Shown in pieces: positions 4,729 to 36,218 of a stretch of DNA of 64,000 nt. Source of the DNA: an uncultured virus (IMG/VR IMGVR_UViG_3300022200_004366) (Duplodnaviria > Heunggongvirae > Uroviricota > Caudoviricetes); IMG/VR virus record IMGVR_UViG_3300022200_004366; one strand, 5' to 3'. Made by a program: the position numbers and the translations under genes. Within the stretch, counting starts at the first letter, position 1. Each line of letters opens with the position of its first letter. The notes beneath the pieces were generated by a model, which was given only the letters and a program-made list of their open reading frames with translations, searched no databases and was not told the origin of the DNA.

Positions 4729-4768
4729 ATACATATTAAATACAGCAATACAGTAATGGAGTTCAAAA

Positions 4769-9137: not shown

Positions 9138-10094
9138 ATGAGAGTAATGGTTGTAGGTGGTGCTGGGTTTATTGGGCACCATGTCGTAAAAGAATTACGA
9201 GACTTAGGTCACGAATGTATCGTCCTAGATAACTGGACTACCTATGGCATATTGGAGCCTAAAGCACATCAGAAATTACTTGACGAACGCATTGATTACA
9301 TGGGACACCCTACAATGTGTCCGTGGGATATTGCCAGTGCTAATCATATTAACTCTAGTTTTGAACGGCACAAACCAGACGTTGTTATTCATTTAGCAAG
9401 TTTTCCACGTGCTAAAATTGTAAACACCAATCCATTAATGGCTCGTCATACTATGATCGATGGGTTAGAAAATTTGTTAACTGCGTCTGTTAATACAGGC
9501 GTTAAACGTTTTGTGTACATTAGTTCATCAATGGTATATGGTGACTTTGAGGGCGGCGTTACTGAAGATACTCCTTGTAAGCCCGGAAGCATTTATGCTG
9601 CGTACAAACACGCAGGTGAACTATTAACTAAGCACTTCGCAGATAAGCACGATATGGATTACGCTATTGTACGTCCAAGTGCTGTGTATGGTCCTCGTGA
9701 TGTAGAGGATCGTGTAGTAAGCAAGTTCTTTATGAATGCTATTCAGGATAAACCACTTAATGTAAATGGTGTGAATGAGAAACTGGACTTCTCGTTTGTA
9801 GAAGATGTAGCGCACGGTATTGTACTTGCTGCTACACACCCACTTGCCATGAACGAAACATTTAATATTACACGCGGCGAAGAAGACACTATCCTACGTG
9901 CTGCTGAACTCGTTAAAGCAATTGTAGGCAAGGGTGAGATCAATGTACGCGAACGTGATATGAGTATGCCATCGCGTGGATACCTAAGTACAGATAAAGC
10001 ATATCGTTTAATTAATTACGAACCACGTACTAACATAGAACAAGGATTCCCGCTTTATTATGAGTGGATTCAAAATTCCCTTCTTCGGGCTTGA
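9138..10094 (+). CDS. NAD-dependent NDP-sugar epimerase/dehydratase (extended SDR)
   Basis: GGAGFIG, HLA, SSSMVYG, YAAYK (YxxxK), VYGP. Confidence 0.93.
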   Translation: MRVMVVGGAGFIGHHVVKELRDLGHECIVLDNWTTYGILEPKAHQKLLDERIDYMGHPTMCPWDIASANHINSSFERHKPDVVIHLASFPRAKIVNTNPLMARHTMIDGLENLLTASVNTGVKRFVYISSSMVYGDFEGGVTEDTPCKPGSIYAAYKHAGELLTKHFADKHDMDYAIVRPSAVYGPRDVEDRVVSKFFMNAIQDKPLNVNGVNEKLDFSFVEDVAHGIVLAATHPLAMNETFNITRGEEDTILRAAELVKAIVGKGEINVRERDMSMPSRGYLSTDKAYRLINYEPRTNIEQGFPLYYEWIQNSLLRA

Positions 10095-11121
10095 ACGTCA
10101 GCACGCTTATTTAAAAGACGAATTACTAGAAGCAACCGATCGTGTGCTTGCCAGTGGGCAATGGATGGCCGGTGAAAATACAGAACAGTTCGAACAGTGG
10201 TTAGCACATAAAACTCACTCGCAATACGCAATCACTACGCATTCAGGCACTATTGCGCTAGAAGCAATCGCAAAATATTACGAACGTTCTAATTACATTC
10301 CTGTTAAACGTGCGTTAATTCCTACATTAACATTTCCTGCTACTGCTAATGCGTTTATTAATTCTGGCTGGGATGTTGAGTTTTTAGATTGTAATCGTAA
10401 CGGACAAGTAGAATGGCACAAACACGTCGATGGTAGTACCGAAGGTATTGCTGTTGGAGTTGGCCTATACGGAGAAGAAATACGTGATGTTCCACATCTT
10501 CCTTTTATCGAAGACGGTGCGCAACATTGGTTAGCAGACGATTGTAGACATCAAGGTCTAGCAACTACTATTTCATTTGACCCTACTAAGAACCTACCAA
10601 GCACAGGCAACGGCGGTGCTATTGTAACTAATTCAGAAGTTATGTATGAATGGTTAAAAGGTTATTTTAATCACGGCAAACATCATGTTCCGTTTGCGGG
10701 TACTAACGCACGCATGAGTGAACTAGAAGCAGCACACTTATTAGTACGTAAAAATTATTTAGAAATGTGGCAAGGACGCAGACGTGCTATTGCTAGACAT
10801 TGGATATATCGTTTTTCTGATTCACCAGTGCGTGTAGTATTAAATCATATGGGAAATCACGCATTACAAAAATTTGTTATTGAAATTGATAACAGAGATT
10901 ATATTCGAGATCAGCTAGCAAATGATGGTATTGAAACTCGCATACATTATGAAAAACCTTTACACGAATTAAAGCAATACGAAAAATATAAAGGTCCAAA
11001 CATGATGAGCGTTGCCAGTAGTTTAACTAGACGTGTGCTAAGTTTGCCGTTCTACCCTGATTTATCTGGTGACGAAGTAGAATTTATAGCCGATCGGGTT
11101 CTACACCATGTACAGAAATAA
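10060..11121 (+). CDS. DegT/DnrJ/EryC1/StrS-family PLP sugar aminotransferase
   Basis: SGTIAL, TFPATANA, IEDGAQ, SFDPTKNL (PLP Lys), GNGGA, LSLPFYP. Confidence 0.93.
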   Translation: MSGFKIPFFGLERQHAYLKDELLEATDRVLASGQWMAGENTEQFEQWLAHKTHSQYAITTHSGTIALEAIAKYYERSNYIPVKRALIPTLTFPATANAFINSGWDVEFLDCNRNGQVEWHKHVDGSTEGIAVGVGLYGEEIRDVPHLPFIEDGAQHWLADDCRHQGLATTISFDPTKNLPSTGNGGAIVTNSEVMYEWLKGYFNHGKHHVPFAGTNARMSELEAAHLLVRKNYLEMWQGRRRAIARHWIYRFSDSPVRVVLNHMGNHALQKFVIEIDNRDYIRDQLANDGIETRIHYEKPLHELKQYEKYKGPNMMSVASSLTRRVLSLPFYPDLSGDEVEFIADRVLHHVQK

Positions 11122-13102
11122 AGTATTCTCGTAACCATCTCCATTCGTAAGTTAACTTCAACTGGTCAAAGTCTCCATTAACTGAATCATAATATCGAAC
11201 AGCATCGACAGCACCTGTTATACTCCATGACCCGTGCTCGCCATTGCCTACAGTTAACCACTTCTTAAGTCTATATTCTGTTTCAATTGAAGTTTCTGCT
11301 GCTTTAAGTTTAACGACTTCACGGAAAGCCGAACGCCACGCAGTCCACGCATCATCGGCATACTGTGCTGTGCCGCTTAATAACGGAACGACTTCGTGTT
11401 CGCTATCGAGTGTAAAATCCAACCCTGTGCCTACGTTGCTTAATGTTAACTGTTTATGATACGCAATCATAGCCATATGACCATATTCTAACCCGTTAAC
11501 AGGATTATGTGCGTGAAAGATATAATGCTTGTTTTGCTGTAGTCTGTCAGGTTGCCACGACCAATCAAAATCTGGGTTAACTTCTAGTTTAGCAAACACA
11601 GCGAAGAACCAAGGAGTTTCGCTTTGATTTGCTGCGGCTTGATATGCTTCTACACGTCCGTTAACACCGTCACTGCGAACTACTCTATTAGGTTTACCAC
11701 GCATTATTTCTTGTAGGTGGTTCCAGTGTTTTTCGGCAATTTCTTCTCCGTTAGAAATAAACACAACATCTAGCGGTTTATCTTTATTTAAAACACGATA
11801 TGTTGTGTTAATATACGGATAATCATACAATTCTTTTAAAACCGCCGTTTTTGCGTCTCTTGGCACTACTACGACACTATTTCCGTTAGATAATGGTACA
11901 ATAGTGCGTGTTTTTTCTCTCCATAGTGGGACTGTAGGTATTTTGTTAACTGTGCGATCAGCAAATAAAGTCAACGGCTCTAAAAATGTATGTTCCTTAA
12001 CAGCATCAACAATAGAGTTACCGTCTGTGTGTACTACAGGAATTGGCCAACGTGGTACTTCAATTCCGTCTACAAAATGTATAGTATCATACCATTCTAG
12101 TATTTCTGTTGTACCAACACGATCATTAAAACTTGGAGCGTTAATTAAAAATGTATCGCCAAATTTTTCAGCCTCTGACGCAAATACATGTAACATTGTT
12201 CCTTGCCATTCTTCTGGGTGCCAAGAAAAATCAAAATTTGAATAATCGCATACACTAGAACATACCCACACAAAGTTACTCTCTTCTCGACTTAGTATTC
12301 GTTGTAATGTTCCTTTGTATGAGTTAATAAAGCGAGCAACTTTCTTAACAACAAGTCCTTTACTTTCTAATTGTTGCTTAACAATTTCTGTTTCAGCATT
12401 GCCATGATCAATAAGGTACACTTCTCGGCTAACGGCAATATTTTTAACACGTTCTTGTGTAACATATTTGGTTGCTTTTGCGTTATTAACTTGATATAAA
12501 GGACCACCAGTCTTTTGCCATTGAGTGCCAAACTGATAATTATATGCTGGTTCTGTATCATCCGGATGCCAAGTGTAATCAAATCCATCTAACTCAACAT
12601 CAGGAATAATCCAATTATCATCAACAGAGGTTTTTTGTACACGAGGTTGATTTACATATTTTACTGTATCAGCAGTTAGAACCACGTAACGCGGTCCACC
12701 AGTCTTTTGCCATTGAGTTCCGAACTGATAAACGTACGGATCTTCTGTGCTATCTGGATGCCAAGAATAATCAAATTCTGTGTAAGAAGTATCATCCCAA
12801 TTAGAATAGTCTACTTTACGATACGCAATCATTCCAGCATGGTAGTTTGTGTCGGTCCATCCTGCTTTTGGATACAAGCAGGTACCTGAATCCTTTTGAT
12901 GTTGACTTGCGTAAACGTGTCGTTGATGACTCTCCCAGGGCTTAGGCTCCCAAAGAAAATCAAACTCAGAATAATCACATAAGTAGTGTATAATCCAAAA
13001 GTATCTTGTACGACACAATTGTTGTGCTTCATCGATATTTTTTACTTCACGTTCGTGAACAAACTGATTTGGTTTAGATCCAATATAAAATACATCAAAC
13101 AT
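11084..13102 (-). CDS. multi-module glycosyltransferase-like protein with internal repeats
   Basis: C-terminal domain (LDVVFISNGE...AWRSAFREVVK) is paralogous to the DxD-bearing protein at 32635-33546; repeated FD(F/Y/W)xWxP modules. Confidence 0.55.
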   Translation of the reverse strand: MFDVFYIGSKPNQFVHEREVKNIDEAQQLCRTRYFWIIHYLCDYSEFDFLWEPKPWESHQRHVYASQHQKDSGTCLYPKAGWTDTNYHAGMIAYRKVDYSNWDDTSYTEFDYSWHPDSTEDPYVYQFGTQWQKTGGPRYVVLTADTVKYVNQPRVQKTSVDDNWIIPDVELDGFDYTWHPDDTEPAYNYQFGTQWQKTGGPLYQVNNAKATKYVTQERVKNIAVSREVYLIDHGNAETEIVKQQLESKGLVVKKVARFINSYKGTLQRILSREESNFVWVCSSVCDYSNFDFSWHPEEWQGTMLHVFASEAEKFGDTFLINAPSFNDRVGTTEILEWYDTIHFVDGIEVPRWPIPVVHTDGNSIVDAVKEHTFLEPLTLFADRTVNKIPTVPLWREKTRTIVPLSNGNSVVVVPRDAKTAVLKELYDYPYINTTYRVLNKDKPLDVVFISNGEEIAEKHWNHLQEIMRGKPNRVVRSDGVNGRVEAYQAAANQSETPWFFAVFAKLEVNPDFDWSWQPDRLQQNKHYIFHAHNPVNGLEYGHMAMIAYHKQLTLSNVGTGLDFTLDSEHEVVPLLSGTAQYADDAWTAWRSAFREVVKLKAAETSIETEYRLKKWLTVGNGEHGSWSITGAVDAVRYYDSVNGDFDQLKLTYEWRWLREYFISVHGVEPDRL
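12460..12778 (-). repeat. intragenic tandem duplication, 192-nt (64-aa) period
   Basis: CCACCAGTCTTTTGCCATTGAGT at 12504 and 12696; protein repeat FDYxWHPDxTExxYxYQFGTQWQKTGGPxY...KYV. Confidence 0.85.
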
Positions 13103-13110
13103 TATAAATT

Positions 13111-14232
13111 ATGATTCGAATTGACGAGCTATATGATAACACATTTTGGCCCTGGATACAAGAGAATTTACCTGGGATTCGGATGTTTTATTGTGATCCA
13201 CCTGGACATACTAGTGTTGATTGTTTATTTAATCACGGCGAAGATTTCATCTTAGAAAGTGATTATGTATTTTTACATGATCAAGAACCGGTCGATATAG
13301 ATCTTTATAAACCGTTGTTCGACGACGTTATTAGACGCAACGACGATATTCAACCAGAACCAGGAAATTATAATAAAAAAGCACAAGGTGGAATTGTTGT
13401 ATCAGAAAAAGGCGAGTACATTAATCGCTTATGTAGCGAATACGGTTGGCGGAATTATTATTATTTTTGGCACGGCTGGGCAGCATTAGACTGGTATCGT
13501 GGTTATGATCGTACATTTTTAATTAAGCGTGCTGCTAATCGCAACCCAACTAGAACATTTATGTCTCCTAACCGTATCATCGGCGGCCTTCGCGACCATC
13601 GCGTGTTATTTTTATATGAAGTATTCAAGCGTAACTTACAGCATAATCATATTAGTGCTCCTCGTGCCTGTCCTGTAGAACACACAGACATTACACACAT
13701 TGCGTCTAAGTATCAAAATCGTATCCTTGATATTACTCGCGTACTATCCACAGAAGAATTACCAATTACATTTACTAATGAAGATACTCAAAAAATGTCA
13801 TCATGCTGGTTAGATAACTTTGATGCTGCTGCGGATAGTATGTTTTACGTGCCTACCGAAACTATATATTTTGGCAAGCGTTTACATATTACAGAAAAAA
13901 CTTTTAAAGCCATTGCGCTCGAAATGCCTTTTATACTTGTTGCTCCAGCACATAGCTTAGAGTATCTGCGTTCTTATGGATTTCAAACGTTTAGCGATAC
14001 CATTAACGAAAGCTATGATGATGAAGAAGATGACTTACTGCGTATTCAAAAAGTTGGTCAACTACTTGAAGATATAAACAACTTATCAGTTACCGAAAAA
14101 CAGCATATTTGGAAACATTGCTCCAGAGCAGCAACACATAACTATAATCATTTTTACAGTGGCAAATTTGAACAAGTATTATGGAAAGAACTATTATTAA
14201 TGTTGGAGCAAATTAAACGAGATTATGTATAA
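13111..14232 (+). CDS. putative glycosyltransferase-like protein (TEK-motif family)
   Basis: ET...HITEKTFKAIALEMPF...GFQTF...ESYD; TEK recalls the GT10 fucosyltransferase motif. Confidence 0.5.
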   Translation: MIRIDELYDNTFWPWIQENLPGIRMFYCDPPGHTSVDCLFNHGEDFILESDYVFLHDQEPVDIDLYKPLFDDVIRRNDDIQPEPGNYNKKAQGGIVVSEKGEYINRLCSEYGWRNYYYFWHGWAALDWYRGYDRTFLIKRAANRNPTRTFMSPNRIIGGLRDHRVLFLYEVFKRNLQHNHISAPRACPVEHTDITHIASKYQNRILDITRVLSTEELPITFTNEDTQKMSSCWLDNFDAAADSMFYVPTETIYFGKRLHITEKTFKAIALEMPFILVAPAHSLEYLRSYGFQTFSDTINESYDDEEDDLLRIQKVGQLLEDINNLSVTEKQHIWKHCSRAATHNYNHFYSGKFEQVLWKELLLMLEQIKRDYV

Positions 14233-15433
14233 ATTTTACGTTGACAAAATTGCTAAGAATGCGGTTGGTTTTTCAAAACCACATCCAAACTGCGCAATGG
14301 TTAGCGCAGAACCATATACTCCTGAATGGAGGCAATTTAGTACACGCTGGCCTTACTCAGAGCCAGTGATGTTGTTTGAATACATGGATCATTGGGATGT
14401 GCCATATGAGTTAGTTAAGTTGGAAGATACAGATAACAACACATTTTACCCAATTGCCCTTAGTTTTTTTAGTTTTGATGTTGATTGGTTCTCTTTAATA
14501 CCATTAGATGTTTTTGAGCGTATATGTAATCAAAAATTACGTATCTTGTTTTACTATAGCGAAGGTGATAATCCTAAACGGATTGACACTCGCATCAATG
14601 AACTGTGCGATGATTACTGCGTTCCTCGAGAACAAGTTTATTTTGCGAGTGCTAATAGTGCGTGCCGTGATATTCCGTATTTCTTTCATGTAGTGGATGA
14701 TGAATTATTATATAACTTTCGTAATAGAAAAATTGAACCAGTAAATTATCATTGTAAGCATAGAAGTAAAAAGTTTACCGCACTTGTTAGAATGCACAAG
14801 TATTGGCGTGCTAATACTATGGCACGAATATGGGAACATGGCAACAATCAGCAAGGATATTTTGGCTACGGAAATGAAATAACTGCGAACGAAAACGAAG
14901 ACGACAACCCCATTGAAGTTGATCGTTTTGTTGGATTGCGTGAATTAACACGTTTATTCTTAAAAGAATTACCGTTTGTTGCCGACGACCTAAGTGTAGT
15001 TCAACATAACAACCATACATTAAGTGTAGAAGAACATTTTCGCAACAGTTATTTAAACATTGTGTTGGAGTCGCACATGGATGTGGATCAAAGTTACGGT
15101 GCGTTTCTAACCGAAAAAACATTTAAACCAATTAAAAACGTACAACCATTTATTATATTTGGTGGGCCGTCTAGTTTACGTTTATTAAGAAGAATGGGTT
15201 ATAAAACATTCGAAGGCATGATTGATAACAGTTATGACGATATCACAGATACTACAAAACGTTGGGAAACTGCGATTAATTTAACATTAGATCTAATCAA
15301 CTTAAATAACAAACAGTTACGTGAAGTTTATACTGCTTGTAAGAACGATTTACTTTACAATCAAAAATTATTTTTGTCGAATAAAAAAGATAGAATTCTA
15401 ACACTTTTAAGAGATATACATGAATCCAATTAA
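14225..15433 (+). CDS. putative glycosyltransferase-like protein (TEK-motif family)
   Basis: NIVLES...FLTEKTFKPIKNVQPF...GYKTF...NSYD; paralogue of the preceding gene. Confidence 0.5.
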   Translation: MYKFYVDKIAKNAVGFSKPHPNCAMVSAEPYTPEWRQFSTRWPYSEPVMLFEYMDHWDVPYELVKLEDTDNNTFYPIALSFFSFDVDWFSLIPLDVFERICNQKLRILFYYSEGDNPKRIDTRINELCDDYCVPREQVYFASANSACRDIPYFFHVVDDELLYNFRNRKIEPVNYHCKHRSKKFTALVRMHKYWRANTMARIWEHGNNQQGYFGYGNEITANENEDDNPIEVDRFVGLRELTRLFLKELPFVADDLSVVQHNNHTLSVEEHFRNSYLNIVLESHMDVDQSYGAFLTEKTFKPIKNVQPFIIFGGPSSLRLLRRMGYKTFEGMIDNSYDDITDTTKRWETAINLTLDLINLNNKQLREVYTACKNDLLYNQKLFLSNKKDRILTLLRDIHESN

Positions 15434-16463
15434 TGCCTATACGTCTTGGGACCCGCTGGAAGAAGTTATTGTAGGTCGGTGTTATCCACCGGAATATTTT
15501 GATTTTATTCAAGACGACGCTGTTCGCAAGCAGCTACAACGTGTACTCAGAGAAACCGAAGAAGACTTAGACAATTTACAAAAAGTTTGTGAAACCTACG
15601 GTGCTACAGTACGTCGTCCAGAAATTAAAGTTACACAAGACCAATTTTATGAATGGCAAACAAAAAACGGCGGAGCTCCATTGCCTCCGCTGACTCCAAG
15701 AGACTGGCAAATTACACTAGGCGATAAGTTATTACGTGTACTAAAAATGAATGAACTTGATCATGTGTGTAACGAATATAAATCACAAGGCGGCAAAGTT
15801 ATTAATCCTCACGGTGATTATTATGATGAAAACTGTGTACTAAACGGCGGAAGTGCTAGTTGTATTGTACGTGTAGGGCGTGACGTATTCTTTGACAATT
15901 CAGAATTCTTAACAGAAGCACAATCAGGATGGATCAAGGAAAATGTACTCAATGATCAAGATTATCGTTTCCACGAAGCACGCACAGAAGGGCACGGAGA
16001 TGCTGTATTTGCTATCTTGAAACCTGGTGTTATTTTAAGCACGTATCACGCAGATGACTTAAATTTAGAAGCAGAATTTCCTGGGTGGGACTTCTTACGT
16101 TTAAACGATCCAAGCATTCAAGCAGCACAGATGATTGGCCGTGTTAAAGAAGAAAATAGATTAGACGAGTCTTGGTATTTACAGGGCGAACGACCAACTG
16201 ATCAATTCCGCGATTACGTTAATAATTATCTAACACATTGGTTAGGATACATTAACGAAACTGTGTTCGATGTTAACTGTTTAGTGTTGGATCCACAAAA
16301 TGTTATTTTTTCAGCAGAAAATAAAACTGTATTTGACTTTTGTGAAAAGCACGGTATTAACCCTATTGTATCACCGTTGCGCCATCAATATTTTTGGGAT
16401 GGAGGCATTAGTTGTTGTACTCAAGATATTAGGCGGCGCGGCGGATTAGAAACTTATCTATAA
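15420..16463 (+). CDS. amidinotransferase (glycine/inosamine-phosphate amidinotransferase-like)
   Basis: SWDPLEEVIVG N-terminus, PRD, GHGD (His), FDVN, GGISCCTQD (catalytic Cys). Confidence 0.85.
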   Translation: MNPINAYTSWDPLEEVIVGRCYPPEYFDFIQDDAVRKQLQRVLRETEEDLDNLQKVCETYGATVRRPEIKVTQDQFYEWQTKNGGAPLPPLTPRDWQITLGDKLLRVLKMNELDHVCNEYKSQGGKVINPHGDYYDENCVLNGGSASCIVRVGRDVFFDNSEFLTEAQSGWIKENVLNDQDYRFHEARTEGHGDAVFAILKPGVILSTYHADDLNLEAEFPGWDFLRLNDPSIQAAQMIGRVKEENRLDESWYLQGERPTDQFRDYVNNYLTHWLGYINETVFDVNCLVLDPQNVIFSAENKTVFDFCEKHGINPIVSPLRHQYFWDGGISCCTQDIRRRGGLETYL

Positions 16464-20372: not shown

Positions 20373-20470
20373 TTGTAGATAAATGGGTCGCGCTTACGTA
20401 ATTCTTTTAGTTTCTTTCTATAACGGATTTCAAGTTTAATCTTGTTCCATAGTCGTTTAAAAATATTCAT
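20369..20470 (-). CDS. 33-aa basic peptide (below the ORF-track cut-off)
   Basis: MNIFKRLWNKIKLEIRYRKKLKELRKRDPFIYK; TAATG overlap upstream and ATGA overlap downstream. Confidence 0.7.
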   Translation of the reverse strand: MNIFKRLWNKIKLEIRYRKKLKELRKRDPFIYK

Positions 20471-27059: not shown

Positions 27060-27077
27060 ATTGTTTACTTAATTTGT

Positions 27078-28496
27078 TTATTGCTGTTGTGCAAAATATT
27101 TGCACTCGTTCCACCAAGAACTCATTTCCGGAAATGTTTCTATAAAATTATACCCATGCCGCTTATCATATTCGTTAAAGAAACGATAAAAATCTGCTTT
27201 GTTTTGCTCCTTGTTCTCAGCCGGTTGGCGCATCCAGGCAATGTCTCTATCCATACGATTTATTTCGTAGTCTTTAAATCCTTTAAAGCGTGTTTCAGGT
27301 GTTTCGCAATGTTCTATCATCCATGTCAATAAATCTTCAAGTTTATCAGCATACATGTCTGGGAGTAATCGTAACGACTGCCATTTAGGAGTATGTAAGA
27401 CTGGGGTATCAAACCATACACGTTGATATGTATTTGAATACACTTGTCTTAGTCCGTGTATAGCCGGAATAAGTTTATCTAGACTTGTAACAGATAAATT
27501 ATTCATTGTAACAATAAATGTTAAACTACTTCTATATGGTACTTCATTTAAAAATTGGTTAACTCGATCCCATAATAAATTAAAATCTAGTCCGGCTCGC
27601 ATATATTCTGCTTGTTTGCCAAATCCATCTAGCGATACATATTGCATAAAGTGTTCTATATTTTCACCTTCGTTGCAAATACGTTTTACATAGTCAATGT
27701 ACTTGTCCCAGAGTTTTTGCTCTACCGACAGGTTAGATGTTACGTTTAGATGTAAGTCTGGTTTTGGATTCTCTAATACATAATCAAACACACGATATGT
27801 ATTTTTATCCATTAGTGGTTCTCCGCCTGTCATACGGAAGTGTTTTAAATCTGGGTATAAACCAGGCCACCATTTCCAGAATGCTTCCACATACGGATTG
27901 TATTCCGAGTGCGGAATAGGACGACGTTCTCCTTGAAAATGTACCGGGTCGTTATGCGGTGTACTTGTTGGATATGCACCGTATTCTTTTGCCTGGCGCA
28001 TCCACGAACTGCTAAATTGAGGTGAACAATAACTACACTCTAAATTACAAGCAGAGTTAAAGTTCACCTCAACATATGCAGGGTTAGTGTCTGCCATTGA
28101 ATCGTCCACAACCTCATCAAACTTTTCAATAGCCCACGGTTCTCCCGAACGATAGTGTCTGTCACTAAGTTTGCCGTTGTCTTCCATTGCCCAGCAATAA
28201 AAGCACTCCTCAGGACGTTCGCCTGCAATCATCTTTTCACGCTGTAGTTTTTTATAATCAGTGTTATGCAACTTACTGGGATTTCCGTCGAGTTCCTCTA
28301 CAGGAATTTTATGCAGCGGAGGATGATAACATGAATTATTCATGCCATTGGTTAAATGCAAACTTACCTGCTTCCACTTAGCCAAGCAGAAACTTGGACT
28401 TACAGTATCTAATTTTTGTTGTGCTCTTTCTGCATCACTTAAGAACTTTGATTTAAAGTCCTTGTCTACTTCGTCACCTTTGTTTTGTTCAACCAT
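27078..28496 (-). CDS. radical SAM protein with N-terminal twitch-like domain
   Basis: SFCLAKW...SCYHP...CFYCW, then CNLECSYC, TGGEP, VSLDG. Confidence 0.92.
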   Translation of the reverse strand: MVEQNKGDEVDKDFKSKFLSDAERAQQKLDTVSPSFCLAKWKQVSLHLTNGMNNSCYHPPLHKIPVEELDGNPSKLHNTDYKKLQREKMIAGERPEECFYCWAMEDNGKLSDRHYRSGEPWAIEKFDEVVDDSMADTNPAYVEVNFNSACNLECSYCSPQFSSSWMRQAKEYGAYPTSTPHNDPVHFQGERRPIPHSEYNPYVEAFWKWWPGLYPDLKHFRMTGGEPLMDKNTYRVFDYVLENPKPDLHLNVTSNLSVEQKLWDKYIDYVKRICNEGENIEHFMQYVSLDGFGKQAEYMRAGLDFNLLWDRVNQFLNEVPYRSSLTFIVTMNNLSVTSLDKLIPAIHGLRQVYSNTYQRVWFDTPVLHTPKWQSLRLLPDMYADKLEDLLTWMIEHCETPETRFKGFKDYEINRMDRDIAWMRQPAENKEQNKADFYRFFNEYDKRHGYNFIETFPEMSSWWNECKYFAQQQ

Positions 28497-29170
28497 TGAT
28501 TAAAATCTTCGCTTATAAATTCAGCAAACTCGCGTGTTGCTTTTAATGTTGGGTGCTCGTGACAGAAATATCCATTATCTTCCCAGTAGCACCATTCTTT
28601 TATTTGCTCGTCCCACAAAAAAGTTAATTGTTGACTTGGAACTACATTATTACTAAACATTCTCCAGCCAACATCGCTTGCTCCCCATCCAAATTTAAAT
28701 CTATTATCCGGTAATTGATTTGCTATAAATTCTTGCCAACTTTTATGTATTACTGTCCAGTTAGAAGGTAACTTAATTTGTGTTGTAAAATCACTGAGCC
28801 CTCCAATAAATGCAATTGGGTTTTTAATGGTGTTAGATATTTCTCTTAAAATTAAATCAATACATTCTTGTCTGAGGTCAATATAGTTCTCAAGTTTTAA
28901 CCAGTCAAACTCATCAACATTATACACTCTACCCCAATCTCTTCCTGGTTCCGTAAATATCCAAAGTAATGGCATATTCTCATTAACTTTAGAGTTCACT
29001 AACTTATCTAAAACATCTAGGTTTCCATACCCAGGTGTAATGCAAGTATCGTAATTACCAATTAACATATCAGCTATACAAATATCCTGATCTGTTTTTT
29101 CTTTGTTGTAATTGTCGTTGTCAAATGCTTTTTCTGCCCAACTATCGCCACATAAGATATAATCTGTCAT
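28466..29170 (-). CDS. SGNH-like protein
   Basis: N-terminal LCGDSW, GYGN, TEP, late HEHP. Confidence 0.45.
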   Translation of the reverse strand: MTDYILCGDSWAEKAFDNDNYNKEKTDQDICIADMLIGNYDTCITPGYGNLDVLDKLVNSKVNENMPLLWIFTEPGRDWGRVYNVDEFDWLKLENYIDLRQECIDLILREISNTIKNPIAFIGGLSDFTTQIKLPSNWTVIHKSWQEFIANQLPDNRFKFGWGASDVGWRMFSNNVVPSQQLTFLWDEQIKEWCYWEDNGYFCHEHPTLKATREFAEFISEDFNQWLNKTKVTK

Positions 29171-30027
29171 TGTATTTTTAAGTCTTTCTTTTCTTGTGAA
29201 AATATTTGTTCACCGCAATATTGCTCAGGGCAAAATTTACATTGCGGTATTGGATTTTTTATATTATCAATAAAACTTTTTTTTGTGATGTTGTCGTCGA
29301 CGACGCTGAGGTATTCGACACTATTCATTAATTTTCGATCTTCAGCACTCAACTCTAGAGGGTATTGATTGTCGTATTCTTTAAATAATGCGCTTGGCCC
29401 ACATTTGTATAATAAACCTTTATCAAAATGATGACATTCTCTACTGTGACATATGCTATGTGCTTTTTCTGGATCACTATTGTGCAGTGTTTCGATTCCT
29501 TTGTCACGAATAATGGCACCTTGGTGGAACCACCAATTGTATAATACTTCTATTCTTACTTTATTTGCATCTGTTATATAAAGTTTCTGTCGATAAGGAG
29601 TGTTATCAAACTCGTATGTGAAATCACCTTCGAGAAAATCATTTATGTATTGATTAATCTTAGGTTTGTGTTCTTTATTGTGTACACTAATACTTAATAA
29701 TATTTTTTTATTATTTCTTAGGTGACTATATAATTTTTTATGAAACGGAAGTCTAAATCCATTGGTAGCAATTTTTACATACGAAGTAGGCCAGAGATTA
29801 GTGAGTCCTTCGAGCCAATCATAAAATGTAGAATTTAGAAGAGGCTCTCCTCCCATTAACGCAAATAAATTAAATTCTATATGTTTACTCCATTCCGAAT
29901 ATACATCTTTGTAGTCATCCCACTTTTGAAATCCAGAAAATTTTGTATCGTTAAATCTATTACATCCTTTGCAAGAAAGGTTGCAAACATTTGTAATATA
30001 AAACTCCACATAGTTTAATCTAACCAT
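29167..30027 (-). CDS. radical SAM protein (short type)
   Basis: CNLSCKGC, MGGEPLL, ATNG, LYKC, CKFCP. Confidence 0.92.
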   Translation of the reverse strand: MVRLNYVEFYITNVCNLSCKGCNRFNDTKFSGFQKWDDYKDVYSEWSKHIEFNLFALMGGEPLLNSTFYDWLEGLTNLWPTSYVKIATNGFRLPFHKKLYSHLRNNKKILLSISVHNKEHKPKINQYINDFLEGDFTYEFDNTPYRQKLYITDANKVRIEVLYNWWFHQGAIIRDKGIETLHNSDPEKAHSICHSRECHHFDKGLLYKCGPSALFKEYDNQYPLELSAEDRKLMNSVEYLSVVDDNITKKSFIDNIKNPIPQCKFCPEQYCGEQIFSQEKKDLKIQ

Positions 30028-30994
30028 TTAACTTTTTCTCTATGTCTTTAGAATCTATAGACTTTAACATTTCGTAATTGTGATCTAAAATTTCTTGCAT
30101 ATTATAATACATCCATTTAATTTCTTCAAGTGGTTGATTGGCTATATGTTTTAATGTATCTTTAATTCCCTTGATATTATAATACGACGGATCTTCTTGA
30201 TAGCCTTCGTCCCAGAACTCGTGAAACGTTTTAAATCCTAATTTATGCAAATTAGTTATTATATGCTGTGCACCATGTATAATAAATGGTGTTTTGGTTG
30301 CTACTGCTCGCCAGAATTTTTCAGTAACAAAAAAATTCGTACCTTGATACCAAGTCTCGCAAATAATATCAATTGCAAATTCTGAATACCAATTACAAGG
30401 AACTAACACGTTCTCTGGATGCATTATTGGATAACTTTGTATTTTTTCTTTAAGCAACGGTGCGTTTGATAATAAATGCAATGCTTCGTTACACTCAACA
30501 GAATTTGCACCATATTCGTGAATAAGTTTATCAAATTCTAGATGTGTTTTATGGTAGTCACTTGTATGATCGTAATGAAACGTTTGAAATGTTTTGTCTT
30601 TATAGTTTTTATATAAATGACTTGCTAGTATTAATCTAGGAAGTGTTGTTCTACTAACCAGGTTACCAAAATGATATTTAATATTTTTTGTTTTTGGAAT
30701 TTGCTCAGCAATTTTCTGAAATAACGGTAATTCAAACATTGCTGCAGGATCAAACGTAACGTTGACTTGATTGTATGTTTCAAGAGGATTGCCGGTAATA
30801 ATTGTGATCTTAGATAAATCAACACCTTGTCTAGCAATAAAATTGAAAAATTTGGGCAGTTCTGTTTCTTCAATTGCTGGTGATTCGCTGTTAAGATGAA
30901 CAGTAACAGCGTCATTATTTTGCAATTCAAACAGTAACTCAGCTGCCTTTTCCATTGGGTTCCATATTCTATTATCATTAATAATTAATTTCAT
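30020..30994 (-). CDS. putative glycosyltransferase-like protein (TEK-motif family)
   Basis: DIICET...FVTEKFWRAVATKTPF...LGFKTF...DEGY. Confidence 0.5.
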   Translation of the reverse strand: MKLIINDNRIWNPMEKAAELLFELQNNDAVTVHLNSESPAIEETELPKFFNFIARQGVDLSKITIITGNPLETYNQVNVTFDPAAMFELPLFQKIAEQIPKTKNIKYHFGNLVSRTTLPRLILASHLYKNYKDKTFQTFHYDHTSDYHKTHLEFDKLIHEYGANSVECNEALHLLSNAPLLKEKIQSYPIMHPENVLVPCNWYSEFAIDIICETWYQGTNFFVTEKFWRAVATKTPFIIHGAQHIITNLHKLGFKTFHEFWDEGYQEDPSYYNIKGIKDTLKHIANQPLEEIKWMYYNMQEILDHNYEMLKSIDSKDIEKKLNG

Positions 30995-31821
30995 TTAATT
31001 GTCACTGTTGATAAATGGTCAATGATTCCTGTTTGATTATCTGGACACTGACCGCAAATAGTGGCAGGCTGCCCAAAATTAGCGATGAACATATCTAGTT
31101 CTATATCGCTACAACCAGGAACAATACCGTCATGTAAATAATCTTGCCATTCTGCTAATGGTCGATTAAAGCGTTCTAATATTTCTCGCAATAATCCAGC
31201 AGTTGAACACTTGTAAATACGTCCTCTATATAACAACGGGCAGGTTTGTTGGCAGCAGTTGCCAAACGCTAACTCAGGAACAGAATGATGTGGTTGCATA
31301 GTTTCATATGTTCCGCGAAATGTTTTTACAAAACGTTCTGGTCTGTTAACTTGAAACCGTATATTGTTTTTGCCCTTCCATCTCCATATTCCGTATTCTT
31401 CAACTCGTTCAAAAGAATGAGTTGCTAATGTTTTTCCTATAAACTCATCTGAATCAGGTGTGTGTGCTGTGATCTTAAATACTACATTACCGACTTCAAT
31501 CATTTCATCTAGGATGTCAGGATATTTGCGTAGTAATAAGCCATTGGTAGTAAAGCGTATTTGGCTATTAGGCATTAGTTCTCTAATACCATAAACCCAA
31601 CGTCGCCATTGCGGGTTAATAAGAGGTTCTCCGCCCATAATACCAAAGTCAGGAATGTCTATACGTTCCAACCAACTTTTGATTTGTTGTTTTCCTTCGT
31701 CCCAACTTACATACCCTTTGTGTTCTAAATCACTGTAGTTTGTACAACCGGCACAACTTAGATTACACACCTGTGTAATCATAGTTTCTAAAAATGGTAA
31801 TATAGGTTTAGATGTCATCAC
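30991..31821 (-). CDS. radical SAM protein (short type)
   Basis: CNLSCAGC, MGGEPL, TTNG, IYKC, CGQCP. Confidence 0.92.
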   Translation of the reverse strand: MMTSKPILPFLETMITQVCNLSCAGCTNYSDLEHKGYVSWDEGKQQIKSWLERIDIPDFGIMGGEPLINPQWRRWVYGIRELMPNSQIRFTTNGLLLRKYPDILDEMIEVGNVVFKITAHTPDSDEFIGKTLATHSFERVEEYGIWRWKGKNNIRFQVNRPERFVKTFRGTYETMQPHHSVPELAFGNCCQQTCPLLYRGRIYKCSTAGLLREILERFNRPLAEWQDYLHDGIVPGCSDIELDMFIANFGQPATICGQCPDNQTGIIDHLSTVTIK

Positions 31822-32623
31822 AAAGTTTAAACCAGTCGCTGTCTTCTATAGTGCGGCATTCTTTAAAAGCATAACTGTGTTCCCAATTGTACGTTTCGTT
31901 AGTTGGCCAATGTAGACTTAACCAACGATCTAATAATATCAGGGCCTGGTCCTTGGGGATAGTAAGTCCAAAATACGAATCCAGGTATTCAAGCATTTTA
32001 GGCCAGAATTCTGGAGTTATGACCCATTCCATTGGCATAATAGTTAATTCACTGCGTCGGAGTAATCGTCTACGTAATCGAACCATGTCATAAAAATTCA
32101 TTAAATTTACCTTAACCCAGGCCTTTTCGCCATGTTTATTTTTAAATTTTTCTATATCGTCTACATCCATAAATGTGAAATTAAACATGCGTTCAGCTCC
32201 GTATTTCATTGTATAGGCTCTAACTTGCCAACTGAGACCAAACATTGTATCTGGTGCAACGCTTAGAATTTTAGCATATGGTGCCTTGCTTAGATCTTCT
32301 GCTGTTTTCATATCCATGATATCAAGCATAAAATTTTTAGTCTCTAAAATTGATTCTAATTGTGCATTCAACGGTACCAAACCTCCAATACGTGGATCAC
32401 CAAGATCCATATCAATACCATAATCGGTATATTGTTTCAATTTGTATTCGCAGGCAAACCAATTATTGTATTTCACTGGATAAAGATGGTCCATGAGATA
32501 TTGAAGTCTTTTATCTGTGTGCGCAGGGAAAAAAGTTGATTCATCGAGATGGCACACGTTCTTAACAATGTTTTTAGCGGCGCCAATATCTGCCTGTATT
32601 GCAAATAGTTTGTTTGCTATCAT
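31808..32623 (-). CDS. hypothetical protein
   Basis: 271-aa ORF with AAGGA RBS; no confident motif. Confidence 0.7.
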   Translation of the reverse strand: MIANKLFAIQADIGAAKNIVKNVCHLDESTFFPAHTDKRLQYLMDHLYPVKYNNWFACEYKLKQYTDYGIDMDLGDPRIGGLVPLNAQLESILETKNFMLDIMDMKTAEDLSKAPYAKILSVAPDTMFGLSWQVRAYTMKYGAERMFNFTFMDVDDIEKFKNKHGEKAWVKVNLMNFYDMVRLRRRLLRRSELTIMPMEWVITPEFWPKMLEYLDSYFGLTIPKDQALILLDRWLSLHWPTNETYNWEHSYAFKECRTIEDSDWFKLCDDI

Positions 32624-32634
32624 TTCTTTTATCC

Positions 32635-33546
32635 TTAAATAACGTCTATTTCACGTACAGTAGCACCCATATTATGCCAATTACTACGATAATGATGTTT
32701 AAAGAATTTGCTTGATTTTGCGTCTAGCAAAGTCATTGGTAAATCTAACCGTCCAGTTAAACGCTCACCATATAATTCAATCATTTCACGTGGATCTTTG
32801 TCTTGCGTTGTAGACCATAGTTCTGCTAAGTTATCAAACCATTGTACTTCTCGATAATCCCAGTCATCGAGCATAGTCATTGATGTGCCTTGTCGAGCGC
32901 CAGCGATCGCCCACGCTCCATTTTCAACATCAAGACCGACATTGTGCCAGATGGTTAAATGGTCCATGTTACGCTTATGTACCGCTTCTTTAAATTCTAA
33001 TTCGGTTGGCTTACGTCCACGGTCCAAACACATTTTAACACCTTCGCGGAAACCTGCTCGCCAAGCCTGAAATGGACTACCGTTCGGATACGTAGTTGAA
33101 TAACAATCATGCATTGGCCAATATAGAGGATCAAAACAAAATTCTACACAAGTATCATCTGAACCGTCAGATGCTTCGTGAGTTTTCATGTTTTGAATAA
33201 ACTCACGTGTCCAACAACTTAGTCCGCCGTTGCCGTACATGAGCCCATTGATATGATTAACCGCTCTCCAGCGAAATACAGCCTTTTCGTATTCTGGAGT
33301 TTTCATTTCTAATTGTAGATTAAAAAACTCTGGGTTTGGTAGGTTATCGCCGTCGATTAGAACAAAACGTTCTGTTGTGCTTGCTTCTGCTGCTGCTTTA
33401 TGTGCTGCGTCAGACCCTTTAACTCCGTCGACACGAACGGCCCAAGGTATCATATTTTTAATTTTAACCCAAAACTCTTCTTTTTGGGGTTCGTCGTAAC
33501 TTAGATACACAACATCTAAGTCAGCAATATCAACAATATCACTCAT
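32635..33546 (-). CDS. GT-A-fold glycosyltransferase-like protein
   Basis: LDVVYLSYDEP, AHKAAA, FVLIDGDN (DxD), YGNGG, AWRAGFREGVK. Confidence 0.65.
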   Translation of the reverse strand: MSDIVDIADLDVVYLSYDEPQKEEFWVKIKNMIPWAVRVDGVKGSDAAHKAAAEASTTERFVLIDGDNLPNPEFFNLQLEMKTPEYEKAVFRWRAVNHINGLMYGNGGLSCWTREFIQNMKTHEASDGSDDTCVEFCFDPLYWPMHDCYSTTYPNGSPFQAWRAGFREGVKMCLDRGRKPTELEFKEAVHKRNMDHLTIWHNVGLDVENGAWAIAGARQGTSMTMLDDWDYREVQWFDNLAELWSTTQDKDPREMIELYGERLTGRLDLPMTLLDAKSSKFFKHHYRSNWHNMGATVREIDVI

Positions 33547-33844
33547 ATCGTTTTAATTTCCATTTTTGGTCGGGAAGAATAATTGAAACGTCTATGCCCT
33601 GATTTACAGGAACAAGCTTCTGGTAGATGTACTGTGTTGGCCGGATTAATCTTCCGTCTACTATACGAACATCATAACGTCCAACATTGTAAGTTTCTTT
33701 ATCTACTATAATGTAATTACCTGGCTGATTATCCGTTGAATAGAAAAGCGGTTCACCTAAATCGTTATAGTATAAACGATATTCTAGCTCAACAGGATCT
33801 ACAGCAGGTTGAATTTGATCAAGTGCTTGCCAAAAGTTTGTCAT
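33539..33844 (-). CDS. hypothetical protein
   Basis: ORF-track 33539-33931; ATG at 33844 (MTNFWQ) avoids a long overlap. Confidence 0.6.
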   Translation of the reverse strand: MTNFWQALDQIQPAVDPVELEYRLYYNDLGEPLFYSTDNQPGNYIIVDKETYNVGRYDVRIVDGRLIRPTQYIYQKLVPVNQGIDVSIILPDQKWKLKRYE

Positions 33845-34628
33845 ATAATGGTTCCAATTCTTGCGCAAAATCTTTTTGGTGATAATGTACAGGATATCGT
33901 TGGCTCGCAGTATTAATTCTAAACTCACCATCGACTAACTCCCATACTAACTGTTTACGCCAATCTTCTGCCGAGATATTATTAATTTTAGACTTCATAT
34001 GTATTAAACTTGGGTATGAGGTATTTGGTAATGTAACATTTTCTACACCTATAATACTTGCTGCCATTGCGTATACTAAATCAGTGTTAGCAATTTCGTC
34101 CGATCCACCACGTAAACTTTGTTTATACACATCCCAATTTTCAAATATGTGCCTTACTTTGAAGAAAAAATCTTTTGCTGTGCGACTAACACGCCAGTAT
34201 GTAATAGCATTATAAATGTCCGGTAAATGATTTAAATCAAATATTTTACGGTAATGTCTTGATGTAGCTGTATGTTGTAAAAAATTTTTACTACCTTGTG
34301 TAAGAACCACATCTCGGTGTTCAAACATAGTCCACCAATGGTCAATAGGAGCAGTTACAATCATATCTGCTTCTAACTTAACAGTTTCTCTAAAAGGGCT
34401 AGCAGCAAATACTTGCCAATCATCTGCCCAGCCACCTACTGTAGGATATGGAAATTGTTTTATATAATCAAAAACAGGATCAGAATATTCTGTGTCAGTT
34501 AGCAAACATATCTTTGCCAACGGATGCCAATAACGTAAACTTTTTGCTAGCACACGTGCGCAGGCAATATAATCCGTATCATCGGTGTTAGAAGCCACAA
34601 TTAAATATCCGCGTTCTGCTTCAACCAT
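33819..34628 (-). CDS. GT-A (GT8-like) glycosyltransferase-like protein
   Basis: GYLIVA..DYIACA..LAKSL, SPFRETVKLEADM (EAD at the DxD position), HY. Confidence 0.6.
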   Translation of the reverse strand: MVEAERGYLIVASNTDDTDYIACARVLAKSLRYWHPLAKICLLTDTEYSDPVFDYIKQFPYPTVGGWADDWQVFAASPFRETVKLEADMIVTAPIDHWWTMFEHRDVVLTQGSKNFLQHTATSRHYRKIFDLNHLPDIYNAITYWRVSRTAKDFFFKVRHIFENWDVYKQSLRGGSDEIANTDLVYAMAASIIGVENVTLPNTSYPSLIHMKSKINNISAEDWRKQLVWELVDGEFRINTASQRYPVHYHQKDFAQELEPLYDKLLAST

Positions 34629-35358
34629 AAAGTGCCTCTAAATGTTTTTTACCCATGGCATGAAAATCCATATTGCTTAACTGTATCCAGCTCTTATCGT
34701 AATCAACACGATATACATTGTCTGTGCGTGTTAGCGTATGTTCTGGTACAACACTTTGTAATGTCCATGGAATATTAAAATGGTCTGCGTTAAAGTGGCC
34801 GTCGGCAATACTTAATGCGATGCTTAATGCGTAATCGTTGCGATACGGGCGTTTTTTAAAGCTATACAAATTAGCATAATGCTCGTAATTTTCTTCTACC
34901 ATACGCATACTGTCAAATATAGCACGTGCTGTATTGGATTTTGTAAAGTATACAACAGTTGCCCACCACATTGGAAAACGGTATTCGCCAAATGTGTTTA
35001 ATTGCTTGCTCCACCCTGTGCTAGTAACGCTGTTTGCGTTACGATGTGCTAAGAAATCTTGATTGCTGTTGAACAGGCGTAATAGCTGTTCGCTGTTTAC
35101 AACATAGTCAGCATCTAACAATATAGTTTGATCGTACGGGGACAACTCGTACGCACGGCTGCGTCCTGAATTTAACCAGGTTACACTTTTGTTATAATCA
35201 GCAAACCAACGTGTACTGTTTGTAACTGTTGTTTGATCGGTAATAATTGTGGTATCTAAGCCTAAATATTGCTTGATGTTATCACGCGAATGCTCTGCGA
35301 GTTTAACGTAATCAATATCACCGTTATTATGCGCAAATATCAAGCAACCTTGGGTCAT
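34621..35358 (-). CDS. GT-A (GT8-like) glycosyltransferase-like protein
   Basis: GCLIFA..DYVKLA, SPYDQTILLDADY (DxD), RNDYA, HAMGK. Confidence 0.65.
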   Translation of the reverse strand: MTQGCLIFAHNNGDIDYVKLAEHSRDNIKQYLGLDTTIITDQTTVTNSTRWFADYNKSVTWLNSGRSRAYELSPYDQTILLDADYVVNSEQLLRLFNSNQDFLAHRNANSVTSTGWSKQLNTFGEYRFPMWWATVVYFTKSNTARAIFDSMRMVEENYEHYANLYSFKKRPYRNDYALSIALSIADGHFNADHFNIPWTLQSVVPEHTLTRTDNVYRVDYDKSWIQLSNMDFHAMGKKHLEALYG

Positions 35359-36188: not shown

Positions 36189-36218
36189 GTGCGTATTATA
36201 CACGATTATATATCAAAG

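Follow-up and report, generated by a model that had tools for sequence, protein, structure and literature searches.

A conserved radical SAM gene array beside the fibre genes of a T4-like jumbo phage, with a tentative role in virion glycosylation

Published descriptions of large phages with arrays of radical S-adenosylmethionine (SAM) genes go back to 2010, but give them no function (PMC2853527). The T4-like Campylobacter phages CP220 and CPt10 are reported to carry 11-12 radical SAM coding sequences per genome, five of which share one module with a glycine-amidinotransferase (PMC2853527); Aeromonas phage 332-Vera, placed by its authors in a nucleus-forming family, reportedly holds eight radical SAM genes inside a large structural cluster, which they called highly unusual (PMC12390700); and in cyanophage S-SCSM2R a DegT-like gene, a radical SAM gene and amidinotransferases were read as 'antibiotic synthesis genes', one amidinotransferase having been detected in the virion preparation (PMC12801897). 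Here we describe a gene island at positions 9138-35358 of a 64,000-nucleotide stretch (the window) from an uncultured member of the Caudoviricetes, IMG/VR record IMGVR_UViG_3300022200_004366. An earlier note on this stretch had proposed that the island encodes a self-contained pathway for a heavily modified glycan, and that no characterised pathway has this composition. No counterexample to the latter was found: a literature search, outside of which lay bioRxiv supplements and most subscription journals, yielded no paper assigning a function or product to such a composition. The phage arrays above, however, precede it. As set out below, the island is built around five consecutive paralogous radical SAM genes whose order is fixed in related phages, and we tentatively propose that it serves to glycosylate fibre proteins.

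Among the 39 open reading frames (ORFs) examined for the CxxxCxxC motif, exactly eight carry it (16463-17518, 21527-22849, 22836-24428, 24425-25735, 25701-27059, 27078-28496, 29167-30027 and 30991-31821), the number of radical SAM genes that the earlier note had counted. All eight match Pfam Radical_SAM (PF04055) at E<=0.001, six of them above the gathering score of 29.5 bits. The two below that score (21527, 29.1 bits; 27078, 20.0 bits) both pass NF033640 (NCBIfam N_Twi_rSAM, twitch domain-containing radical SAM protein; curated cut-off 170 bits). Members of this family are the five consecutive minus-strand genes in 21527-28496 (299.7-394.4 bits), whereas the other three radical SAM genes score 23-39 bits and stay below the cut-off. 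In transcriptional order the five core genes are paralogue 1 (27078-28496, 330.8 bits), paralogue 2 (25701-27059, 313.8 bits), paralogue 3 (24425-25735, 394.4 bits), paralogue 4 (22836-24428, 329.8 bits, with a 135-aa N-terminal extension) and paralogue 5 (21527-22849, 299.7 bits). In each of the encoded proteins a SPASM-like twitch motif is located N-terminal to the barrel. The paralogues share 20-30% identity, and C41, C60, C102 and C105, which precede C156/C160/C163, are invariant, as are CxxxCxxC and a GGEP motif; an alignment of the five was too diverged to be used as a profile for genome scans. At E<=1e-5 the protein collection has over 7000 clusters of homologues of 24425-25735. None of the 120 listed bears a functional name, and a PDB sequence search with this protein detected no solved structure. 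Weak secondary NCBIfam matches of the N-terminal-twitch (N-twitch) proteins are to the small-molecule enzymes MoaA, viperin and QueE and cover the core barrel only. Neither Pfam nor NCBIfam revealed an RRE/PqqD-like leader-binding domain.

An IMG/VR search with one radical SAM protein gave 166 matching stretches, from which 80 loci were kept; the 42 loci with full 10-kb flanks form the counting set, in which some are near-duplicates and not all are independent. Orthologues of the five NF033640 genes occur in the same order in 42/42 of these loci, that of 21527-22849 in the same position, each being about 53-67% identical to its window counterpart. Downstream of them follow gene 20470 (42/42) and then a carbamoyltransferase gene (40/42). 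Ahead of them lie the gene for a GT-A-type protein (32635, 41/42) as well as a small gene and two GT-A-like genes (37/42 each), and further ahead 35883 (28/42), 36268 (27/42) and the fibre-like gene 37343 (14/42), the last three counts being limited by the flank length. On the opposite strand, the amidinotransferase gene was found in 31/42 loci, and of the 14225/13111 family 14225 in 24/42 and 13111 in 20/42. Other genes are rare, with six occurrences in the 42 loci for the short-chain dehydrogenase/reductase (SDR) gene, two for the DegT gene, one each for the SPASM-type radical SAM gene and the truncated dehydrogenase gene, and two and four for the short radical SAM genes. Median identities amount to 53-70% for the core enzymes versus 46% for the neighbouring structural gene 36268. 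The island is a fixed core (about 11084-28496 plus 32635-35358) with swappable cassettes (9138-11121, 16463-18143, 19620-20372 and 28466-32623). Because the gene order is kept in 42/42 full-flank loci, this is not a chance cluster, and the clustering is beyond chance. The earlier note had named loss of gene order in relatives as an observation that would refute its proposal; the opposite was found.

Beyond these loci, two complete relatives with terminal repeats (G002 and G003) contain 11 and 7 NF033640 genes, respectively. Vibrio phage K566 has two over and three near the cut-off, the cultured Ralstonia phage RsoM2USA two and CP220 none; none of 14 control cellular genomes has a member over the cut-off. 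On a 7955-base contig of Marine virus AG-345-D19 (MH319727.1, MH319724.1), obtained by single-cell amplification, an amidinotransferase gene, a carbamoyltransferase gene (49% identity) and the start of an N-twitch radical SAM gene stand side by side.

The GT-A-type gene at 32635-33546 (minus strand) is the best supported of about seven glycosyltransferase (GT)-like genes that the earlier note had proposed. By its AlphaFold2 (AF2) model (pLDDT 80), the product is predicted to be a GT-A fold glycosyltransferase-like enzyme with a helical C-terminal domain and a DxD motif, the residues D65, G66 and D67 being invariant across 26 sequences; nucleotidyltransferases of the same fold score equally in VIA, and glycosyltransferase activity is therefore putative. 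Foldseek placed PBCV-1 A64R first (2p6w, E 9.1e-5, prob 1.0), followed by GT2 enzymes, with A64R, BcsA, TarP and RmlT at E 9e-5 to 1e-3. VIA gave Z 9.0 (rmsd 4.1, 143 aligned residues), and Z 8-9 over residues 4-156. A sequence profile of the family run against PDB returned chance rows only (E >=0.078). Absence of a GT fold in these proteins had been named as a further point that would refute the proposal, and for this protein a GT fold was found.

For the other six GT-like genes the assignment comes from paralogy or weak leads only. Two of them, 33819-34628 and 34621-35358 (both minus strand, core, 37/42 loci), would encode nucleotide-diphospho-sugar-transferase-like proteins. They are paralogues according to hhalign (prob 98.3, E 1.3e-14), and the former also matches phrog_1903. 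LDAD is invariant in the 34621 family (LDADY in the window protein, with D82 and D84 invariant), while 33819 has LEAD, an E-x-D, at the DxD position. For 34621-35358 an Atlas lead points to nucleotide-diphospho-sugar transferase clusters (GT8/Nucleotid_trans 0.96, 171-172 shared features), in which 20-51% of the members carry PF01501 or PF03407. The 672-aa protein of 11084-13102 (minus strand, 11/42 loci) shows aromatic repeats, spotted by eye, and a C-terminal GT-A-like domain without DxD: its residues 442-634 align with the 32635 family in hhalign (prob 97.4, E 1.3e-11), with AKL at the DGD position. The remaining three, 13111-14232 (plus, 20/42 loci), 14225-15433 (plus, 24/42) and 30020-30994 (minus, a variable slot, 19/42), have a C-terminal motif (TEK...GF/Y-K/Q-TF) in common. 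BLASTP links 14225-15433 to 13111-14232 (E 2e-14) and to 30020-30994 (E 2e-7 over the TEK motif region). Product 14225-15433 may be GT10-like by an Atlas lead to GT10 clusters (0.78-0.79), which lies under the bar of 0.9; one viral cluster fuses the 14225 fold with an SDR sugar epimerase (TM 0.69). PDB profile searches with the 34621 and 14225 families gave no match, and among nine unassigned proteins Pfam at E<=10 showed no SGNH, GT8 or GT10 match.

Several further enzymes would fit sugar chemistry. The amidinotransferase that the earlier note had listed is encoded at 15420-16463 (plus strand, 31/42 loci) and is missed by both Pfam and NCBIfam when a single sequence is used. A profile of 17 orthologues, however, matches AGAT (2jdx, E 1.8e-20) and StrB1 (1bwd, 8.8e-16) in PDB, the full set of matches being 2jdx, 1jdx, 1bwd, 5wpi and 6u1r (human AGAT, StrB1, HsvA, SxtG; E 1.8e-20 to 6.4e-15). 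Cys332 and His192 are invariant and align with the catalytic Cys and His of AGAT, and the C-terminal GGxxC motif and the H-x-D motif also align and are invariant. The protein belongs, by sequence, to the amidinotransferase (AGAT/StrB1) fold, and its activity is predicted. Enzymes of the StrB1/AGAT type amidinate amines. Clear Pfam matches likewise bore out the carbamoyltransferase, SDR and DegT calls. The core gene 18134-19627 (minus, 40/42 loci) encodes a NodU/CmcH-type carbamoyltransferase (Carbam_trans_C 175.3 bits, cut-off 27; Carbam_trans_N 141 bits, cut-off 24; phrog_1601 E 2.4e-100), although it scores 143 bits against the 1000 of the NodU equivalog. NodU/TobZ/CmcH enzymes O-carbamoylate sugars and related alcohols. 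An accessory cassette on the plus strand comprises the gene of a nucleoside diphosphate (NDP)-sugar epimerase/dehydratase of the SDR type (9138-10094; Pfam Epimerase 157 bits, GxxGxxG, YxxxK; 6/42 loci) and that of a DegT/PseC/DesI-type pyridoxal phosphate (PLP) sugar aminotransferase (10060-11121; DegT_DnrJ_EryC1 170 bits; 2/42 loci), which lies under all NCBIfam equivalog cut-offs. The call of a UDP-sugar dehydrogenase at 19620-20372 (minus, 1/42 loci) stood in part. This UDP-glucose/GDP-mannose dehydrogenase-like protein has a central domain (97 bits), a GGHCFPKD motif and a partial N-terminal NAD domain. With 250 aa, however, it is truncated: the reading frame stops where the carbamoyltransferase gene begins, the C-terminal UDP-binding domain is absent, and TIGR03026 gives 142 bits versus the 189.8 required. 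Judged by its domains it is thus not a three-domain UDP-glucose/GDP-mannose dehydrogenase.

The core also includes two proteins of unassigned family. Gene 20470-21552 (minus strand, 42/42 loci) encodes a conserved phage-specific protein of 360 aa whose AF2 model (pLDDT 87) suggests a cyclophilin-like barrel with a helical insert. VIA returned many cyclophilins at a borderline Z of 7-8.4 over about 140 aligned residues, and because Z values up to 8.4 fall into the range that the tool calls common, we name no function for it. In PDB, neither Foldseek with the model (E<=0.001) nor a profile search found a match. In BFVD, ten uncharacterised phage proteins, one of them from Atu_ph07, match at E<=6e-6; longer fused forms were not found, which is weak evidence. 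The other protein is small (33539-33931, minus, 37/42 loci, no family match). Among the accessory genes, 16463-17518 (plus, 1/42 loci) encodes a radical SAM protein of the C-terminal SPASM-like type (Pfam 31.9 bits), which has W_rSAM_matur as top NCBIfam match, far under the cut-off, and shares 25.8% identity with a CP220 radical SAM protein (E 3e-10). Two short minus-strand radical SAM genes without a twitch domain are located at 29167-30027 (33.4 bits, CNLSCKGC at residue 15; 2/42 loci) and 30991-31821 (56.9 bits; 4/42 loci). The two genes formerly called SGNH-like are 17505-18143 (212 aa, minus, 3/42 loci) and the accessory gene 28466-29170 (234 aa, minus, 1/80 loci). Their products are not similar to each other; an N-terminal GDS motif, seen by eye in both, is all that supports the SGNH call, and no Pfam family matches at E<=10. 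A 271-aa protein (31808-32623, minus) is unique to this phage among the loci fetched (0/80) and has no family match.

The ORF positions given in the earlier note proved correct, and so did its observation that the minus-strand part of the island continues into virion genes, namely a gp4-like gene (35525-35914) and a tail-fibre-like gene (37343-38698). The window is part of a T4-like jumbo myovirus genome from freshwater: the stretch occurs in public sequencing runs from four freshwater metagenome studies (none registered as RNA), the baseplate wedge protein (52693-56091) shares 33% identity over its whole length with that of Agrobacterium phage Atu_ph07 and other 350-490-kb phages, and PHROGs identify baseplate hub and wedge, gp4-like head-closure and fibre-like proteins on the minus strand from 35525 onward. 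No cultured phage matched the island by Megablast, and the nearest record (G001), 20.8 kb of identical sequence from the structural region, lacks the island.

The minus-strand block of core genes is headed by a gene for a small conserved protein (35883-36203, minus, 28/42 loci; 25% identity to RsoM2USA_354). Next to it, 36268-37263 (minus) encodes a charge-poor, Ser/Thr-rich protein (S+T 0.32), which we regard as a candidate acceptor; all 16 of the 16 orthologues examined are Ser/Thr-rich (median 0.30, overall range 23-33%), and a strong terminator with ten pairs (36242-36219) follows the gene. The tail-fibre-like protein (37343-38698, minus; phrog_19602 tail fiber) has a C-terminal region resembling an intramolecular chaperone (weak Peptidase_G2 match). 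Outside the proposed pathway, the gp4-like head-completion protein (35525-35914, minus; TnsA-like fold, phrog_218 E 1.7e-36) is encoded by a gene that overlaps 35883-36203 by 32 bases and has the same position in just 1/80 related loci, which may be a local rearrangement. Beside the fibre genes, ORF 39442-52686 is a single frame of 4414 aa with CBM_5_12 and FG-GAP matches; in the equivalent place RsoM2USA has a giant virion protein, ORF361 (>288 kDa). Upstream of the island, a MoxR-type AAA ATPase and a DUF2201 metallopeptidase/VWA protein are encoded at 3583-6037, and tripartite tricarboxylate transporter genes at 786-3497 (TctC-like, 37 bits; TctA, 472 bits). A TctA gene is also present in G002 (L090:6515-7954, 333 bits), where a solo N-twitch radical SAM gene lies 1.3 kb upstream of it.

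Scans for sigma70-like promoters and terminators were at background, and together with the late motifs described below they allowed no expression class to be assigned. A sigma70-like promoter with 11/12 matches (9012-9040) precedes the plus-strand part, in a scan that is itself at background. Genes 11084-13102 (minus) and 13111-14232 (plus) are divergent and start eight bases apart, so that their promoters must lie within coding sequence; several weak sigma70-like sites are found at 12203-12621 on the plus strand. Of the T4 late promoter consensus TATAAATA, two copies are present where 10.4 are expected, one of them 38 bases upstream of the tail-fibre-like gene 37343-38698. An exact 12-mer, CATAAATAATAC, is present on the minus strand only at 39425-39436 and 56117-56128, just upstream of 38764-39423 and of the baseplate wedge gene. 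With n=2 it is a candidate late-promoter motif; allowing up to two mismatches, 18 occurrences face 18.0 expected, which is chance level.

Relatives of the core were also found in bacterial genomes. The GT-A (32635) profile, run against 185,579 species genomes, matched 34 loci, many of which carry homologues of the window fibre genes and are probably phage contigs binned into metagenome-assembled genomes (MAGs). Such jumbo-phage-like contigs (L092-L095, L098-L100, L102, L105-L107, L111, L112, L122), which carry the island core besides the fibre-gene homologues, sit in MAGs of Haliscomenobacter, Polynucleobacter, Legionellales, Rickettsiales, Neomarinimicrobiota, Bifidobacterium, a Pacearchaeota archaeon, a Bdellovibrionales bin and others, and are no evidence of a host. 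Three Bdellovibrionales contigs (398 kb, 493 kb and 3.04 Mb) have the 32635-like domain amid DnaB, FtsK and ribosomal genes. There the domain (35-43% identity) adjoins or is fused to Pfam GT2 glycosyltransferases, and NF033640 members (299 and 434 bits) stand among the GT2 genes. These clusters lend independent support to the view that the GT-A/N-twitch pair functions alongside glycosyltransferases. On a Bdellovibrionia chromosome (L104:7535-9843), MoxR AAA_3 and DUF58 genes adjoin such a pair, perhaps by coincidence.

Taken together, it is likely that the core handles sugars at all. More specifically, we favour a soluble cytoplasmic system that glycosylates virion (fibre) proteins and tailors the glycan by radical, amidino and carbamoyl chemistry, a reading to which we give close to, though short of, an even chance; that the radical SAM enzymes act on sugars and that a virion protein is the acceptor are inferred, as are all chemical steps. 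The GT-A-type transferases (32635-33546, 33819-34628, 34621-35358 and possibly the 13111/14225/30020 family) would glycosylate a cytoplasmic acceptor, using NDP-sugars from the host or a cassette as donors. The likeliest acceptors would be the products of the genes immediately upstream (36268-38698), namely the Ser/Thr-rich protein and the fibre proteins. Each of the five N-twitch radical SAM enzymes may then perform one distinct radical step on sugar residues, such as an oxidation, a deoxygenation, an epimerisation or C-C/C-methyl chemistry. The amidinotransferase would convert an amino into a guanidino group, the NodU-type enzyme would O-carbamoylate a hydroxyl, and SDR/DegT and other rare genes would act as swappable cassettes that vary the sugar. 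It is rather doubtful, but conceivable, that the five N-twitch enzymes constitute an undescribed stepwise radical pathway which, with the amidino- and carbamoyltransferases, builds a cationic, heavily rearranged sugar (or sugar-amino acid) on the fibres.

A number of observations weigh against virion glycosylation. The sugar role of the core is backed by the Bdellovibrionales GT2 context, but the virion as target is deduced solely from gene position; the bacterial homologues are not virion-linked, so that the acceptor may be of another class, and the candidate late motif CATAAATAATAC precedes structural genes only and is absent from the island. Six of the 11 NF033640 genes of G002 stand outside any sugar context. 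The neighbours of these solo copies (L086-L090) include genes for a Rad50/SMC-like protein with SegE GIY-YIG, a RecA-like protein, the large terminase (TerL) and a clamp-loader-like AAA protein, and no homologue of an island GT-like gene was found near them. The NF033640 substrate therefore need not be a sugar, and a protein substrate, or for the solo copies a nucleic-acid-linked one, may apply. Characterised SPASM/twitch radical SAM enzymes mostly modify peptides. As to the transferases, the fold of 32635-33546 is also like that of cytidylyltransferases such as IspD (VIA Z 8.3-8.8), and six of the seven GT-like calls come from paralogy or weak leads, without a Pfam match at E<=10. Finally, no sugar-1-phosphate nucleotidyltransferase was found in the island and SDR and DegT genes occur in just 6 and 2 of 42 loci, and the idea of a self-contained pathway had to be given up.

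The peptide precedent raises the question whether the radical SAM enzymes could modify virion proteins directly, by cross-links or L-to-D epimerisation that harden the fibres, while the GT-A enzymes glycosylate the same proteins. The fixed position behind the fibre genes would suit this, as would the solo NF033640 copies of G002, which have genes for large protein machines as neighbours and no GT gene close by, and the fact that SPASM/twitch enzymes are mostly peptide maturases. Nevertheless, Pfam and NCBIfam show no RRE/PqqD-like domain, the bacterial family members reside among GT2 genes, the weak secondary matches are to small-molecule enzymes (core barrel only), and amidino- and carbamoyltransferases better fit sugar chemistry. 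Even with the eight radical SAM genes reported inside the structural cluster of 332-Vera as a parallel (PMC12390700), we consider direct protein modification unlikely. A free small molecule is another alternative: an aminoglycoside- or pseudo-oligosaccharide-like compound with guanidino and carbamoyl groups, aimed at the host or at competitors and not attached to the virion. All enzymes are soluble, and the set parallels aminocyclitol/aminoglycoside tailoring (StrB1-like, NodU/TobZ-like, DegT, SDR, and a BtrN-like twitch). Yet no cyclitol synthase, exporter or self-resistance gene was seen by Pfam or NCBIfam, the genes remain linked to fibre genes from phage to phage, RsoM2USA included, and a lytic phage would gain little from an antibiotic. 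The authors of S-SCSM2R read a related trio as 'antibiotic synthesis genes' (PMC12801897), but the amidinotransferase gene of that phage adjoins GT and Kdo genes. On balance this scenario appears improbable to us.

DNA hypermodification, which would place sugars or amino groups on bases and thereby evade restriction, was the alternative given in the earlier note, and it has been weakened. ThyA and DHFR genes are paired just upstream of the island, known thymidine hypermodification pathways employ radical SAM and PLP enzymes, and the solo G002 genes neighbour replication and packaging genes. However, the window ThyA is a canonical thymidylate synthase (equivalog, 346.9 bits versus a cut-off of 327), and G002 and G003, the two complete relatives, hold the core yet have no ThyA-family (PF00303) or TGT/DpdA-family (PF01702) gene (0/2; controls positive in 10 and 14 of 14). 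As judged from sequence, the signatures of the known ThyA-like hydroxymethylase or DpdA routes are missing. A 2026 paper on glycosylated DNA tabulates a ThyA-like enzyme, a dCTPase, a kinase and GT-B enzymes, and in its accessible part the terms 'radical SAM', 'carbamoyl' and 'amidinotransferase' never occur (PMC13326640). The island for its part has no dCTPase, nucleotide kinase or GT-B DNA glycosyltransferase, and we regard base modification as very unlikely. Remodelling of the host surface polysaccharide (lipopolysaccharide, capsule) during infection, for superinfection exclusion or release, fares similarly. Its enzyme families are common in O-antigen and capsule loci, and bacterial homologues do occur among GT2 genes, but the core is fixed beside virion genes. 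All 25 island proteins are free of hydrophobic 19-mers above 1.6, against 87 in TctA, a control from elsewhere in the window, and Pfam and NCBIfam found no flippase, polymerase or polyprenyl-phosphate transferase among the 25 island ORFs. Since membrane segments and all of these enzymes are lacking, a lipid-linked surface polysaccharide is disfavoured, and we attach very little probability to the host surface, which the earlier note had offered as an option. With the genes for the surface-polysaccharide and known DNA routes absent, a cytoplasmic acceptor remains.

If the stepwise radical pathway on the fibres exists, no virus would have shown radical-SAM-dependent tailoring of a protein glycan before, and the pathway would provide a function for a family of thousands of members that is also present in predatory bacteria. 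Few gene sets of this widespread clade of aquatic jumbo phages are as conserved as the island core. Identification of the product would give a large orphan family its chemistry; it could account for the protection or targeting of exposed phage fibres in fresh and sea water, and it would offer a handle on the genes of Bdellovibrio-like predators.

How, then, does the island relate to the known systems? NF033640 is a family without an assigned function, and the fixed five-paralogue array is a property of the clade of the window phage. CP220, in spite of its comparable module, has no member of the family (best score 30.9 bits, 0/7 matches over the cut-off), which rules it out as a carrier of the same radical SAM family and leaves a parallel at the superfamily level; tblastn found no GT-A core in CP220. 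For 332-Vera, tblastn of the phage collection with the window radical SAM proteins gave no match, but its record is perhaps not in that collection. The Bdellovibrionales cluster is cellular and uncharacterised and has one or two radical SAM genes versus five in the window phage; in the three loci scanned no carbamoyl- or amidinotransferase was seen. Aminoglycoside and aminocyclitol tailoring (StrB1, TobZ/NodU/CmcH, BtrN, DegT-type) draws on the same enzyme superfamilies as the island, which differs in lacking a cyclitol synthase and a resistance gene and in its context, a phage structural region. Twitch radical SAM enzymes include BtrN, which has an aminocyclitol as substrate, but its twitch domain is C-terminal, as opposed to N-terminal in the island proteins.

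Among cultured phages, RsoM2USA offers a partial counterpart. Its ORF347-355 comprise, in order, a fibre N-terminus, a 35883-like, a 34621-like and a 33819-like gene, an unmatched small gene, a 32635-like gene (40%), a 27078-like N-twitch radical SAM gene (RsoM2USA_349; 37%, or 37.5% to 27078-28496) and a second 32635-like gene. A second locus, ORF199-202, consists of a 25701-like radical SAM gene (RsoM2USA_202; 52%, or 51.7% to 25701-27059), two unknown genes and a carbamoyltransferase gene (46%). RsoM2USA thus differs from the window phage in having just two NF033640 genes, split between two loci, and the genes of both loci are all annotated as hypothetical; tblastn detected no amidinotransferase or 20470 homologue in this genome. 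The block lies directly behind ORF356, ORF359 and ORF361. These three were detected in virions by mass spectrometry, and the term 'radical SAM' never occurs in the accessible part of that paper (PMC8504454).

With respect to the proposed function, virus-encoded glycosylation is established in chloroviruses; in T4-like jumbo phages it is not, and no case that involves radical SAM chemistry is known. Virion glycosylation occurs in giant viruses and in some mycobacteriophages. PBCV-1 infects eukaryotic cells, and we know of no radical SAM, amidino or carbamoyl enzymes with a role in its capsid glycosylation. The likeness of 32635-33546 to PBCV-1 A64R is at the fold level only (8-13% identity; VIA Z 7.9 for 2p6w). 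What the proposed system would share with A64R is a soluble GT-A enzyme of viral origin that acts on a virion protein within the cytoplasm.

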